Assembly (NCBI GenBank): GCA_000004985.1 | Contig: GG739045.1 | DNA: 9,141 nt | Reading direction: 5' to 3' (one strand) | Origin: Naegleria gruberi | Taxonomy: Eukaryota | Shown: in pieces, positions 2,335-9,141 of the stretch | Numbering within the stretch: position 1 is the stretch's first letter | How the letters are laid out: every line of letters starts with the position of its first letter | Program-made: the position numbers and the translations under genes | The notes under the pieces: model-generated | Databases searched by the model: none | What the model saw: only the letters and a program-made list of their open reading frames with translations | Told to the model about the DNA's origin: nothing

Positions 2335-3221
2335 NNNNNNNNNNNNNNNNNNNNNNNNNNNNNNNNNNNNNNNNNNNNNNNNNNNNNNNNNNNNNNNNNN
2401 NNNNNNNNNNNNNNNNNNNNNNNNNNNNNNNNNNNNNNNNNNNNNNNNNNNNNNNNNNNNNNNNNNNNNNNNNNNNNNNNNNNNNNNNNNNNNNNNNNNN
2501 NNNNNNNNNNNNNNNNNNNNNNNNNNNNNNNNNNNNNNNNNNNNNNNNNNNNNNNNNNNNNNNNNNNNNNNNNNNNNNNNNNNNNNNNNNNNNNNNNNNN
2601 NNNNNNNNNNNNNNNNNNNNNNNNNNNNNNNNNNNNNNNNNNNNNNNNNNNNNNNNNNNNNNNNNNNNNNNNNNNNNNNNNNNNNNNNNNNNNNNNNNNN
2701 NNNNNNNNNNNNNNNNNNNNNNNNNNNNNNNNNNNNNNNNNNNNNNNNNNNNNNNNNNNNNNNNNNNNNNNNNNNNNNNNNNNNNNNNNNNNNNNNNNNN
2801 NNNNNNNNNNNNNNNNNNNNNNNNNNNNNNNNNNNNNNNNNNNNNNNNNNNNNNNNNNNNNNNNNNNNNNNNNNNNNNNNNNNNNNNNNNNNNNNNNNNN
2901 NNNNNNNNNNNNNNNNNNNNNNNNNNNNNNNNNNNNNNNNNNNNNNNNNNNNNNNNNNNNNNNNNNNNNNNNNNNNNNNNNNNNNNNNNNNNNNNNNNNN
3001 NNNNNNNNNNNNNNNNNNNNNNNNNNNNNNNNNNNNNNNNNNNNNNNNNNNNNNNNNNNNNNNNNNNNNNNNNNNNNNNNNNNNNNNNNNNNNNNNNNNN
3101 NNNNNNNNNNNNNNNNNNNNNNNNNNNNNNNNNNNNNNNNNNNNNNNNNNNNNNNNNNNNNNNNNNNNNNNNNNNNNNNNNNNNNNNNNNNNNNNNNNNN
3201 NNNNNNNNNNNNNNNNNNNNN
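2335..3221. other. Assembly gap (887 N)
   Basis: Run of N. Any ORF spanning it is an artefact. Confidence 1.
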
Positions 3222-4118: not shown

Positions 4119-4596
4119 TTTGGATTTTAATGATCAATTCGAAAGAGATCGAGATAATGTCGTTTTTTTTTAGAGTGGTGAAATAATGGAAAGTTGGCGA
4201 AACCAAAGAATTTAAAGTGATGGTCCTTGGGCAAGGAAACCGAAGCAAATTTGAAGGAGAAAATATTTCCAAACGTCGACATATTTTAAAAACTACATGT
4301 AAGGAAGTCAGTTACAACAAATTGACATTTTCGACGTTGTAATGTCATTTTTCCAAATTAGCACCTGTCAGCGAAATGTCATACAAAAACTGTAGATAAC
4401 ATTAATGTATTTTATTTTCAATTCTACAATCATTGAAGATTTCATCCCTTGATCAAAAAAACAACTCAATTTCATTTTCAACAATCTCTATTGAGGATTT
4501 CAATATCCTAATGAAATATATTCTTCGATCTTTCCTCTTCTTCTTGAAAGATTGCATGAATAGTTCAATTATTTACCATAGTTGACTTTACAATTC

Positions 4597-5237
4597 ATGA
4601 ACAGAAATATTACTCCACTCAAAAAAATGAATCAAGATCAAAATGCACTGCTATATGATAATTTTCCCTTCCACCGAAAAATATTGAACACCACCATCAC
4701 AACATGCCATTCTAGGATCATGATTAACAATTCACTTTATATGTTCCAACTCATTAAAGGAGAAAATATGATCAAGGTTTCTAGGGTGTCTTTTCTGGGT
4801 GAGGGTTTGGCATATAGAATTTACGAATATCAGAATGTGAGAATATACAATGAGGATGATGCTGATGAAAATTCACTTGTAGTTTTAACATTTATTGAAA
4901 TTGGAGAATTGAATGGTTATTTCTACATGTTTTCCGAATCTGAAGGAAGTGGCAGGAATTTAGAACAGGTTCATAGGTTGAAAATTATTGAAGAGAATAA
5001 TGCTTCTTCGATTCAAGTTGAGAGAATTTATAAGAGTTTTGAAACTTCGTATGTGAGAATTCTGAGTCCATTATTAGCAGATAGAGAGAGGAATTGTTTT
5101 TACTGGTTTGGTGGATATAGGATTAGAAAATCAACCAGTTTGAAGGATTGTATCAAGTTTAATGTGGAAACGTGTGAATTTGAATTTTTGACAAATTTTC
5201 AAATGGGATTTGTTTTACATTCTCAATCTTCATTGTT
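4597..5237 (+). CDS. Hypothetical protein, N-terminal ~214 aa (MNRNITPLKKMNQDQNALLYDNFPFHRKILNTT...FQMGFVLHSQSSL), truncated by the assembly gap. No confident family. Weak F-box-like LxxxFPFHRKIL stretch
   Basis: 656 nt of uninterrupted open frame (4582-5237) in AT-rich DNA where stops are expected about every 12 codons. In-frame ATGs at 4597 and 4627; the latter has an A7 context. The frame runs into the N run. Confidence 0.55.
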
Positions 5238-6470
5238 NNNNNNNNNNNNNNNNNNNNNNNNNNNNNNNNNNNNNNNNNNNNNNNNNNNNNNNNNNNNNNN
5301 NNNNNNNNNNNNNNNNNNNNNNNNNNNNNNNNNNNNNNNNNNNNNNNNNNNNNNNNNNNNNNNNNNNNNNNNNNNNNNNNNNNNNNNNNNNNNNNNNNNN
5401 NNNNNNNNNNNNNNNNNNNNNNNNNNNNNNNNNNNNNNNNNNNNNNNNNNNNNNNNNNNNNNNNNNNNNNNNNNNNNNNNNNNNNNNNNNNNNNNNNNNN
5501 NNNNNNNNNNNNNNNNNNNNNNNNNNNNNNNNNNNNNNNNNNNNNNNNNNNNNNNNNNNNNNNNNNNNNNNNNNNNNNNNNNNNNNNNNNNNNNNNNNNN
5601 NNNNNNNNNNNNNNNNNNNNNNNNNNNNNNNNNNNNNNNNNNNNNNNNNNNNNNNNNNNNNNNNNNNNNNNNNNNNNNNNNNNNNNNNNNNNNNNNNNNN
5701 NNNNNNNNNNNNNNNNNNNNNNNNNNNNNNNNNNNNNNNNNNNNNNNNNNNNNNNNNNNNNNNNNNNNNNNNNNNNNNNNNNNNNNNNNNNNNNNNNNNN
5801 NNNNNNNNNNNNNNNNNNNNNNNNNNNNNNNNNNNNNNNNNNNNNNNNNNNNNNNNNNNNNNNNNNNNNNNNNNNNNNNNNNNNNNNNNNNNNNNNNNNN
5901 NNNNNNNNNNNNNNNNNNNNNNNNNNNNNNNNNNNNNNNNNNNNNNNNNNNNNNNNNNNNNNNNNNNNNNNNNNNNNNNNNNNNNNNNNNNNNNNNNNNN
6001 NNNNNNNNNNNNNNNNNNNNNNNNNNNNNNNNNNNNNNNNNNNNNNNNNNNNNNNNNNNNNNNNNNNNNNNNNNNNNNNNNNNNNNNNNNNNNNNNNNNN
6101 NNNNNNNNNNNNNNNNNNNNNNNNNNNNNNNNNNNNNNNNNNNNNNNNNNNNNNNNNNNNNNNNNNNNNNNNNNNNNNNNNNNNNNNNNNNNNNNNNNNN
6201 NNNNNNNNNNNNNNNNNNNNNNNNNNNNNNNNNNNNNNNNNNNNNNNNNNNNNNNNNNNNNNNNNNNNNNNNNNNNNNNNNNNNNNNNNNNNNNNNNNNN
6301 NNNNNNNNNNNNNNNNNNNNNNNNNNNNNNNNNNNNNNNNNNNNNNNNNNNNNNNNNNNNNNNNNNNNNNNNNNNNNNNNNNNNNNNNNNNNNNNNNNNN
6401 NNNNNNNNNNNNNNNNNNNNNNNNNNNNNNNNNNNNNNNNNNNNNNNNNNNNNNNNNNNNNNNNNNNNNN
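5238..6470. other. Assembly gap (1233 N)
   Basis: Run of N. Confidence 1.
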
Positions 6471-6756: not shown

Positions 6757-7596
6757 CTAATCAATATTAATCACTTGCAGAGCATCAAATGAAGTATCAA
6801 CATTCTCCTCTTCTTCCAATTCTGTCATTAACAATTGCATAAACAAGTCAGTCTTACCAAAAATTCTGACAGTTGCCAATCTATCATATTCAGTTTTCTG
6901 TAAATTTACAATACACATCATTCCCTTATTATCTAGAACTTCAAGTGGGAATTCACAACTAGGAGTAACTTTCATACTTGTTCCAAGAACCAATGCAAAA
7001 TCACCCTTCTTTGAATGATCCATTGCTTGATCAAAATCCTTCTCAGGCAAATCTTCATCAAAGTGAATTATATTATCCTTAAGTCTGCCACCACATTCAC
7101 ACTTTCTTCCAGTAAAGTGCTTGGTCCAATCCTTTTCATTCTTACTAACATCAAATCCTCTCAAATATTCCTTATCACACTTGTTACAATATTCAACATT
7201 ATGAAGACCATCCACATTGGTCGATACGACATACTTTACATAGTCCTTCTTGACCAAATGTGTGATGGCATAGTGACAATAGGTAGGAACAGCTTGCTCA
7301 ATTTCCACACCTTCATATTCCTCAACACCATATTCCATTGCAGTCCAAACTCCTTTCGGCCCACGATAATCACTCAATTGTGCACTTGTTGAAATACCAG
7401 CTCCAGTATAAATCACTACATGTTTGGCTTCTTTCAAATAATTGGCCAGTTTTTTGACTTTTCTCTTGATGGATGTTTCACTCTCTTCGTGTTCTTTCAA
7501 CGAAGCTGGAAGTTCTTTTGGTTTGGCTGGTTCTGATGCTTTTTCGGAGGTTGTTTGGGATGAGGATTTGCTCTTCTTTTTGGATTGCTTTGGCAT
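6757..7596 (-). CDS. Class IV sirtuin (SIRT6/SIRT7-like NAD-dependent deacylase), intronless, 279 aa. Variant core lacking the segment that normally carries the catalytic His
   Basis: GAGISTSAQLSDYRGPKGVW aligns with the SIRT6 [20 protein letters not shown] motif. STNVDGLH aligns with SQNVDGLH. Zn module is CNKC...CEC. LVLGTSMKVTPSCEFPL aligns with ITLGTSLQIRPSGNLPL. IVNLQKTEYDRLATVRIFG aligns with IVNLQPTKHDRHADLRIHG. N-terminal K/S-rich basic tail. The stop TAG is followed directly by AATAAA. Confidence 0.85.
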   Translation of the reverse strand: MPKQSKKKSKSSSQTTSEKASEPAKPKELPASLKEHEESETSIKRKVKKLANYLKEAKHVVIYTGAGISTSAQLSDYRGPKGVWTAMEYGVEEYEGVEIEQAVPTYCHYAITHLVKKDYVKYVVSTNVDGLHNVEYCNKCDKEYLRGFDVSKNEKDWTKHFTGRKCECGGRLKDNIIHFDEDLPEKDFDQAMDHSKKGDFALVLGTSMKVTPSCEFPLEVLDNKGMMCIVNLQKTEYDRLATVRIFGKTDLFMQLLMTELEEEENVDTSFDALQVINID

Positions 7597-7829: not shown

Positions 7830-7901
7830 AGCAAATTGGCGCAGCGGAAGCGCGATGGGCTCATAACCCATAGGTCCTAGGATCGAAACCTAGATTTGCT
7901 A
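7830..7901 (+). tRNA. Initiator tRNA-Met (anticodon CAT), eukaryotic cytoplasmic type
   Basis: Cloverleaf: acceptor AGCAAAT/ATTTGCT with an A1:U72 pair. D stem GCGC/GCGC with loop AGCGGAA. Anticodon stem ATGGG/CCCAT with three G-C pairs. Loop CTCATAA. T stem CTAGG/CCTAG with T loop ATCGAAA (A54 and A60 instead of TΨC). These are all hallmarks of eukaryotic tRNAi-Met. A box TGGCGCAGCGG and B box GGATCGAAACC are present. A T7 terminator follows 4 nt downstream. Confidence 0.9.
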
Positions 7902-8016: not shown

Positions 8017-8227
8017 TTAATAGACAGCTTCTCCAGCATAAACTTGATTCTCAATTCCACCCTCTCCTTGAGCAATTTTGAAATATCCAGACATTCCCCA
8101 ATTTGCGCCCCATGAATTGGCAGCTAACCAATAATTAGAACCTCCCTCAACTCCAAATCCAATTAAGGCAACAGCATGTCCACCAAGAACTGTGCTTACA
8201 ACGTGTTTATAGACACCAGACTTGTAA
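8017..8227 (-). CDS. Cathepsin B-like cysteine protease (papain family C1), last exon: (G)[69 protein letters not shown]
   Basis: Contains the catalytic His (GGHAV) and Asn (ANSWG) motifs and aligns with human CTSB [25 protein letters not shown]...ANSWNTDWG. The intron is 42 nt (8228-8269), with donor GTGAGT and acceptor ttttctAG. Confidence 0.85.
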
Positions 8228-8269
8228 CTAGAAAAACATGTTAGAATATATGAAACAAATTAAACTCAC

Positions 8270-8641
8270 CCTGTAAGATCTCTGTAGACTGTGAAACCAG
8301 CCTGAACGCTGCCATATGTCATGATTGCAGTCTTGATATTATTGATACCTGTAATGTAACGAGTATTTTTGGCCTTATACTTGCTCATGGACATGGAAGC
8401 AATCTTGCATTGAGTTGGACAAGTACCAGAGGAGAAGGTTCCTCTTCCACTAGCATATGGAATACAAGTATCGAGAGGTGTTCCAGTATTTTCCAAAAAT
8501 GTCCAAGAATATTTCAAATAACCTCCTTGACAGGCCTTATTCATTGTATCGCATTGTACTTGATATTCTGGTGAGAGGACAACATTGGTTTGACCATTGG
8601 TGGCAATGCACAATCTATGAGCCAATACATAATTTGCAGAA
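8270..8641 (-). CDS. Cathepsin B-like protease, middle exon: (F)SANYVLAHRLCIATNGQTNVVLSPEYQVQCDTMNKACQGGYLKYSWTFLENTGTPLDTCIPYASGRGTFSSGTCPTQC...FTVYRDLT
   Basis: Aligns with CTSB ...ISDRICIHTN...CCGSMCGDGCNGGYP...[12 protein letters not shown]...C. Phases close exactly: exon 1 leaves tt, which with t8641 gives Phe to complete CGACWAF. The intron is 84 nt (8642-8725), with donor GTAAGT and acceptor tatgatAG. Confidence 0.8.
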
Positions 8642-8725
8642 CTATCATAATATTACCAAAAAAAGGAAAATTGTGTCGAATGAAATTATAAGTTGAAATT
8701 AATAAAATCAAATTGTAAAACTTAC

Positions 8726-9141
8726 AAAGCCCAACAAGCACCACATGTTTGTTGATCTCTAATTGCTGGAACACAACCTCTCCATTGAGTTCTTGCATCA
8801 AAATTCATGGGTATATCCATTCTAGTTTCAATATTTTCCATTCTTGGAGTGTCTTCATCAGTGCTCATCAATGAAAGACCAAATAGATTATCTCTAAGTT
8901 GTGAAATGGTCATGTTATCAAATCTAGAGTATTCAGTTGCCTTCCATCCATGAGTATGATTGGAATTAATTCTGTCAATCAAAGATTTGTCATTGACAGG
9001 AGTGTTGGCATGAGTGTGGTTGGCAATTGGATGAGTTGGATGAACAGGATGAGTGCTATTGTGCTTTGGTGGTAATGGTTTCTTTTTGTTTCCTTTGGAA
9101 AGTTCAATTGGAGTGACCATTTCAAAAAAACCAAACAGACA
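8726..9141 (-). CDS. Cathepsin B-like protease, first visible exon (5'-partial; frame is open to the window edge): ..CLFGFFEMVTPIELSKGNKKKPLPPKHNSTHPVHPTHPIANHTHANTPVND KSLIDRINSNHTHGWKATEYSRFDNMTISQLRDNLF...MNFDARTQWRGCVPAIRDQQTCGACWA
   Basis: The catalytic Cys motif QQTCGACWAF aligns with the C1 family QGSCGSCWAF. The propeptide KSLIDRINSNHTHGWKA aligns with CTSB LSDELVNYVNKRNTTWQAG. In-frame codons upstream of the first ATG (CLFGFFE) are open to position 9141. This suggests a signal peptide that starts beyond the window. Confidence 0.8.

Follow-up and report, generated by a model that had tools for sequence, protein, structure and literature searches.

The DNA analysed here (the window) is the entire 9141-bp scaffold GG739045.1 of the published assembly of Naegleria gruberi NEG-M, a free-living amoeboflagellate; the scaffold is small and 23% of it is N. 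At one end, on the minus strand, lies a 5'-incomplete gene already annotated as NAEGRDRAFT_76604, which encodes a cathepsin B-like protease with a short occluding loop and a Pro/His-rich spacer ahead of its propeptide. The features of the gene are listed below; residues of the catalytic centre are numbered on the conceptual spliced product of the window, which is 332 residues long.

8017..9141, minus strand: NAEGRDRAFT_76604, a cathepsin B-like gene that lacks its 5' end (three exons, two introns, stop codon; identity to the deposited protein P0122)
9141-8726, minus strand: exon 1
9121..9141, minus strand: terminal 21 nucleotides, reading CLFGFFE in the protease frame and homologous, by DNA alignment, to the signal-anchor region of a paralogue in another frame
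9118..9120, minus strand: ATG used as start in the deposited model, an internal Met in the full-length paralogue
9001..9114, minus strand: spacer coding region with the sequons NST and NHT (His/Pro core at 9066-9001)
8815..9000, minus strand: conserved cathepsin B-type propeptide (PVNDKSLIDRIN ... ETRMD), from a weak Propeptide_C1 match, alignment and the zymogens found by Foldseek
8726..8814, minus strand: exon 1 part of the mature domain, predicted by alignment to begin at IPMNFDAR
8754-8752, minus strand: oxyanion-hole Gln130 (alignment)
8736-8734, minus strand: nucleophile Cys136 (alignment)
8725-8642, minus strand: intron 1, 84 nucleotides, GT..AG
8641-8270, minus strand: exon 2
8407..8466, minus strand: shortened occluding-loop region CIPYASGRGTFSSGTCPTQC, which keeps the equivalents of Cys100, Cys128 and Cys132 (alignment; predicted local distance difference test score, pLDDT, 88-93)
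8269-8228, minus strand: intron 2, 42 nucleotides, GT..AG
8227-8017, minus strand: exon 3, including His280, Asn300, the Gln at the Glu245 position and the stop codon
8178-8176, minus strand: catalytic His280 (alignment)
8118-8116, minus strand: Asn300 (alignment)
8046-8044, minus strand: Gln at the position of Glu245 of the S2 pocket (alignment)
8019-8017, minus strand: stop codon TAA

The three exons and two introns proposed by a first-pass annotation of the window proved exact to the nucleotide. From Met8 onward the spliced product agrees residue for residue with the deposited protein [P0122; EFC35739.1/XP_002668483.1, 325 residues], and both exon junctions align without gaps to the orthologue of Naegleria fowleri, which is intronless (L001:4001-5098, VFQX01000007.1), whereas the N. 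gruberi copies have two introns. The length of intron 1 varies among N. gruberi-type copies, from 84 nucleotides in the window to about 65 at the same position in L002, an 861-bp metagenome contig from the ENA that carries a paralogue.

The protein belongs to the papain family (MEROPS C1A), as the first-pass annotation had it, by both profile and catalytic residues. Pfam Peptidase_C1 (PF00112) matches with E = 1.5e-50 (172.8 bits, cut-off 20.7) over profile positions 1-218 of 220, and the catalytic residues Gln130, Cys136, His280 and Asn300 are all there, in columns that are invariant or nearly so across 128 aligned sequences. A non-catalytic cathepsin B-like protein of the TINAG type, in which the Cys is exchanged for Ser, is excluded, as the nucleophile Cys is in place.

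Overall sequence and fold assign the protein to the cathepsin B subfamily. The solved structures nearest to it in sequence are those of cathepsin B, zymogens as well as enzymes, with Schistosoma mansoni CB1 (PDB: 4i04) first at 5.9e-48; cathepsin B entries of the PDB match at 1e-48 to 1e-35, whereas cathepsin C reaches 1e-30 and cathepsins S and L score no better than 1e-26. An AlphaFold model built from 70 homologues has a pLDDT of 91.1 and a predicted template modelling score (pTM) of 0.86. Searched with Foldseek, it is most similar to procathepsin B of Trypanosoma brucei, T. congolense, S. mansoni, rat and human [template modelling (TM) scores 0.76-0.88], and the top 31 matches are all cathepsin B. 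The Propeptide_C1 profile gives a weak match (22.5 bits, under the curated cut-off of 32.7); the propeptide can be aligned to human and S. mansoni procathepsin B, its start PVNDKSLIDRIN falling on human PLSDELVNYVN.

Compared with human cathepsin B (MEROPS C01.060), the window protein has the same fold, probably the same type of propeptide, all four catalytic residues (Gln, Cys, His, Asn) and counterparts of the Cys62-Cys128 and Cys100-Cys132 pairs. It differs in lacking the Cys63-Cys67 pair, in its added 38-residue spacer and in an occluding loop that is 13 residues shorter. Gln replaces Glu245, Gly replaces the free Cys240 and GFG replaces GWG; all three substitutions are found elsewhere in the clade. 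Human cathepsin B owes its acceptance of Arg at P2 to Glu245, and with Gln in its place Arg at P2 would probably not be preferred.

The occluding loop was compared in an alignment of the product with human cathepsin B and with relatives from Naegleria, Willaertia, Andalucia and Kipferlia. The canonical loop has about 20 residues, is bounded by Cys108 and Cys119 and carries His110-His111, the basis of the dipeptidyl carboxypeptidase activity of cathepsin B. In the window protein the segment equivalent to Cys100 to Cys128 is 16 residues long (CIPYASGRGTFSSGTC) compared with 29 in the human enzyme; Cys108, Cys119 and His110-His111 are absent, and an independent HMMER alignment to S. mansoni CB1 places the same gaps in the loop. 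The claim of a short loop without His-His stands. What does not stand is the idea that the short loop is a departure of this particular gene. Among 126 database relatives the segment has 14 residues in 99, 15 in nine, 16 in seven and 18 in two; segments of 27-33 residues occur in only 4/126 and His-His in only one (P0119). The short loop is real but ordinary for a large group of protist enzymes that combine a 14-18-residue segment with intact catalytic residues, and the window protein falls within that group. Since cathepsin B sequence and fold are present and the occluding loop with its His-His pair is not, the fitting label is cathepsin B-like, loop-less, rather than canonical cathepsin B. 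Because the role of His110 and His111 is known, and the loop is short and without the pair, it can soundly be inferred that the enzyme would act as an endopeptidase only, as the first-pass annotation had predicted.

The nearest described parallel is found in Giardia duodenalis, for which nine cathepsin B enzymes are described as endopeptidase-only and three as possessing the loop, dipeptidyl peptidase activity being tied to the latter (PMC10454693). The loop-less Giardia proteases (for instance giardipain-1/CP2) share with the Naegleria protein the cathepsin B-type sequence, the absence of both occluding loop and His-His and, probably, a short propeptide and a signal sequence. They differ in belonging to the Metamonada and not the Heterolobosea (the related metamonad Kipferlia protein P0059 is just 38% identical) and in having no Pro-rich spacer before the propeptide, a difference judged from aligned relatives in an alignment without a Giardia sequence. 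Within the genus, the characterised enzyme fowlerpain-2 of N. fowleri (P0007) is likewise loop-less; it has the catalytic residues and a 14-residue segment but is 46% identical and has no spacer. Our literature searches turned up no paper that describes the spacer, or the state of the loop, in any Naegleria enzyme, and in the Naegleria literature retrieved the term 'occluding loop' is found only in reference lists or for other organisms.

Directly before the conserved propeptide lies the spacer, TPIELSKGNKKKPLPPKHNSTHPVHPTHPIANHTHANT. The first-pass annotation had described a low-complexity insertion of about 45 residues with several N-x-T sequons; the insertion is real but by count has 38 residues (7 Pro, 6 His, 5 Lys and 5 Thr), and NST and NHT are true N-x-S/T sequons while 'ANTP' is not. 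Two further sequons lie in the conserved propeptide (alignment). Nor is the spacer a departure of this gene, for its composition, though not its sequence, is common to the orthologues of N. fowleri and Naegleria lovaniensis, which are 62-63% identical overall. One of these, the uncharacterised N. fowleri protein FDP41_010956 (P0004, 62% identical), has the same spacer architecture. The spacer is 38 residues long in N. gruberi, 48 in N. fowleri and 69 in N. lovaniensis; the latter two each carry three sequons, and that of N. lovaniensis is a KPTKPTKPTKP repeat. Only 5-10 residues occupy the position in P0005 and P0006 (about 60% identical), in fowlerpain-2 and in Willaertia. In the AlphaFold model the spacer has a pLDDT of 46-55, taken over the first 30 residues of the model. 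What the three species appear to share, as judged from composition, is a Pro/Lys/Thr-rich, potentially glycosylatable spacer that is modelled as if disordered; the His motif is not shared.

We read the spacer as a stalk, or as an extra N-terminal part of the propeptide, which changes by slippage in evolution and is lost when the zymogen is activated. A weak 9-nucleotide tandem repeat underlies it at 9027-9054 (3.1 copies, 73% matches, score 35); this one array hints at slippage but is too weak to establish a tandem-repeat origin of the spacer. The spacer could instead be a functional module, binding metal or sensing pH through protonation of His and so tuning zymogen activation or sorting. The six His in 38 residues, the (T)HP-x repeat with the tandem repeat beneath it and the retention of the spacer position in three Naegleria species all speak for such a role. 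His is not conserved, however, with six residues in N. gruberi, five in N. fowleri and two of 69 in N. lovaniensis, where the KPT repeat is found instead, and this weakens the suggestion of the first-pass annotation that His-richness could serve metal binding. Neither sequence nor length of the spacer is conserved, its low model confidence is that expected of a disordered segment, it sits (by alignment) in the part that would be removed on activation, and P0005 and P0006 do without it. A functional module is therefore quite improbable; that the spacer of the N. gruberi copies binds metal or senses pH is conceivable but poorly supported. As far as our literature searches show, a Naegleria-specific spacer between targeting signal and propeptide is undescribed.

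Near-identical copies of the gene exist in N. gruberi, where five gene models form a single cluster at 90% identity and differ from each other at 1-13 residues. The best database match of the window protein is the N. gruberi predicted protein P0001 (96% identical), and all of the best matches come from Naegleria and other Heterolobosea, so that an origin of the DNA from a nematode or a parasite is rejected. The window copy differs from P0124 at a single one of 225 residues, and copy-specific variants include Thr87, Glu95 and Met101 (P0122 numbering), with a further copy-specific nucleotide difference in codon 114. Comparison of exon 1 with the paralogue contig L002 gives proportions of non-synonymous (pN) and synonymous (pS) differences of 0.019 and 0.111 (pN/pS about 0.17), which indicates purifying selection on exon 1. 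The search returned a single intronless orthologue from N. fowleri, as opposed to at least five near-identical two-intron copies from N. gruberi. Herman et al. 2021 (PMC8296547) count 35 C01 cathepsins for N. gruberi and describe three or more lineage-specific expansions within its cathepsin B clade; the five-copy cluster fits one of these. The models P0001, P0121 and P0124 also begin at an internal Met (MPPKHN..., MDIPMNF...); 5'-truncated models or 5' damage may be common in the expansion.

The true 5' end of the gene lies outside the window, in agreement with the first-pass annotation. A full-length paralogue (P0123, 362 residues) and a metagenome fragment (P0125) both have 37 more residues upstream of MVTPIEL, with the N-terminus MNNNSNKSFATTRRKSSNT-FLVLSCIVCFVLFTFMLTMV-TPIELSKGN. 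Because both extend upstream of it, the start Met of the deposited model is an internal residue. P0123 opens with a basic stub (four Lys/Arg, none acidic), after which comes a hydrophobic segment of 20 residues (mean hydropathy 2.71 in a 19-residue scoring window); ATGAATAACAATTCAAAC lies in this signal-anchor region. Judged by rule of thumb, the long n-region and long h-region resemble a signal anchor more than a short cleaved signal peptide. A signal peptide or anchor at the N-terminus is present in P0123 as well as in two orthologues, P0003 and P0004; for the window copy it lies off the scaffold.

These N-termini bear on whether the deposited model might nevertheless be right, with a 325-residue protease starting at the ATG at 9120 and remaining cytosolic or being exported unconventionally. 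The GenBank model is exactly this protein (P0122), the ATG is in frame and suitably placed, and an unconventional, autophagy-based route of secretion is mentioned for proteins lacking a signal peptide (PMC8296547). Against it, the homologous Met is internal in both the full-length paralogue and the metagenome fragment, the N-termini of the orthologues in N. fowleri and N. lovaniensis are hydrophobic, and MVTPIELSKGNKKK contains no hydrophobic stretch. The protein also has conserved disulfide cysteines and N-glycosylation sequons; disulfides and N-glycosylation need the lumen of the endoplasmic reticulum. A signal-less protein is thus highly improbable.

The protease frame was correctly noted to stay open to the window edge, for seven codons upstream of the deposited start, but the CLFGFFE encoded there is not in the homologous frame. 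From ATGGTC onward the window and L002 are about 96% identical in DNA alignment. The last 20 nucleotides of the window (TGTCTGTTTGGTTTTTTTGA) match the paralogue sequence TGTCTGTTTCGTATTATTCA at 16/20 positions, 13 nucleotides further upstream, a level reached by 0/20000 random 20-mers and by 12/20000 shuffles. An ungapped, frame-keeping alignment of the terminal 21 nucleotides was also tried and rejected; by hand it gives 6/21 matches, compared with 16/20 for the shift of 13 nucleotides. Relative to the paralogue, a net 13 nucleotides (consensus ...CGTATTATTCACCTTCATGTTGACA...) are absent from the window copy. The paralogue frame reads VCLVFL in the window (VCFVLF in the paralogue) and continues as KWSLQ... 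to a stop at 8979, and the hydrophobic look of CLFGFF comes only from T-rich DNA in the wrong frame. An open reading frame of 51 residues (MVFLKWSLQLNFPKETKR...) at 8979-9134 on the minus strand overlaps exon 1 but is read in a different frame. Rather than a separate gene, it is the ancestral signal-anchor frame continued after the 13-nucleotide deletion.

With these 13 nucleotides missing, signal anchor and protease are no longer read in one frame. Either the window copy is damaged at its 5' end, or the bases at the scaffold end are wrong, or a compensating insertion or deletion lies further upstream. With the rest of the gene intact and a pN/pS of about 0.17 in exon 1, any damage would be recent. 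If the deletion is real, the copy may be a pseudogene or decaying duplicate in which translation from an upstream start ends at 8979 and no secreted protease is made. The net gap with its match at the shifted offset, the ancestral frame running into a stop, the many redundant copies in the family and the missing N-termini of three other cluster models (P0001, P0121 and P0124) are all as expected for such decay. The remainder of the gene, however, has no stops, canonical splice sites and all of the catalytic and disulfide cysteines, and neither its near identity to P0124 nor the purifying selection on exon 1 is what a decaying duplicate would be expected to show. The case for decay hangs on the last 21 nucleotides of a draft scaffold rich in gaps, a place prone to base-calling errors, and a compensating change upstream would undo it. 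We therefore regard a pseudogene as a tangible possibility, though a somewhat unlikely one. Another allele was sought in metagenomes; an exact scan for ATGGTCACTCCAATTGAACTTTC found no match, and a protein-guided scan with P0123 found distant relatives only, at no more than 47% identity.

The window very probably holds one copy of a recently expanded N. gruberi family of loop-less cathepsin B-type zymogens, predicted to be secretory or lysosomal endopeptidases. In an intact family member the basic N-terminal segment and the hydrophobic segment of about 20 residues would route the protein into the secretory or endolysosomal pathway, and the Pro-rich, N-glycosylatable spacer would hold the hydrophobic segment apart from an otherwise normal cathepsin B propeptide. 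The propeptide would shut the active site until acidic autoactivation strips off propeptide and spacer together. With neither a loop on the primed side nor His110-His111, the mature enzyme would cleave as an endopeptidase only and might digest phagocytosed food or extracellular protein. The cathepsin B-like enzymes of N. fowleri (NfCPB and NfCPB-L), a member of the same genus, fit this mechanism: they are secreted, act at acid pH and were assayed at pH 4.5 on Z-Leu-Arg-MCA, an endopeptidase substrate (PMC6988287).

Some points weigh against this assignment. The targeting signal of the window copy lies beyond the window and, if the sequence is correct, is out of frame, in which case this copy may make no secreted enzyme. 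The predicted P2 preference and the restriction to endopeptidase activity are extrapolated from the structure-function relations of human cathepsin B and from Giardia.

A bolder version of the secretory zymogen would make the Naegleria orthologues type II membrane-tethered, loop-less procathepsins B, with an uncleaved anchor and a glycosylated Pro/His/Lys-rich stalk that keep the zymogen at the lumenal or outer side of the membrane, and with release by autoactivation, the His-rich stalk of N. gruberi tuning the pH of release; we consider this unlikely. A possible analogy is offered by the type II zymogens of Apicomplexa (falcipain-2/3 and Toxoplasma cathepsin L), in which a cytosolic stub and a hydrophobic anchor precede a lumenal prodomain and the enzyme is released on activation. 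Those proteases differ from the Naegleria protein in being of cathepsin L type with long prodomains. We know of no description of such a sorting or activation device for cathepsin B-type enzymes.

Much of this is already known; the protein is deposited, it belongs to the published N. gruberi expansion, and loop-less cathepsin B is familiar in protists. The locus is of little import beyond its annotation, where the model XP_002668483.1 should be seen as 5'-incomplete, its start Met being internal in the full-length paralogue, with a possible frameshift in this copy. As far as the literature searches show, nothing here is undescribed except the spacer specific to Naegleria and the likely 5' error or damage of the model. 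The spacer, which FDP41_010956 has as well, could be of interest to studies of how the cathepsins of N. fowleri, candidate virulence factors, are sorted or secreted.

The remainder of the scaffold is interrupted by runs of N at 2335-3221 and 5238-6470 (2120 bases, 23% of its length); such gaps in a draft scaffold bear on the trust to be placed in its terminal bases. Convergent with the protease gene, 115 nucleotides past its stop codon, lies a tRNA-Met gene (anticodon CAT) at 7830-7901 on the plus strand. An open reading frame of 279 residues at 6757-7596 on the minus strand belongs to the SIR2 (sirtuin) family (PF02146, E = 5.1e-18); one stretch matches profile positions 57-180 only and the GAGIS motif lies further upstream, so that the domain may be split by an intron or a small deletion. 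On the plus strand an open frame of about 218 residues at 4582-5237 runs into the second N gap and has a sub-threshold match to Kelch_6 (E = 0.0066, 16.9 bits, cut-off 25.3).

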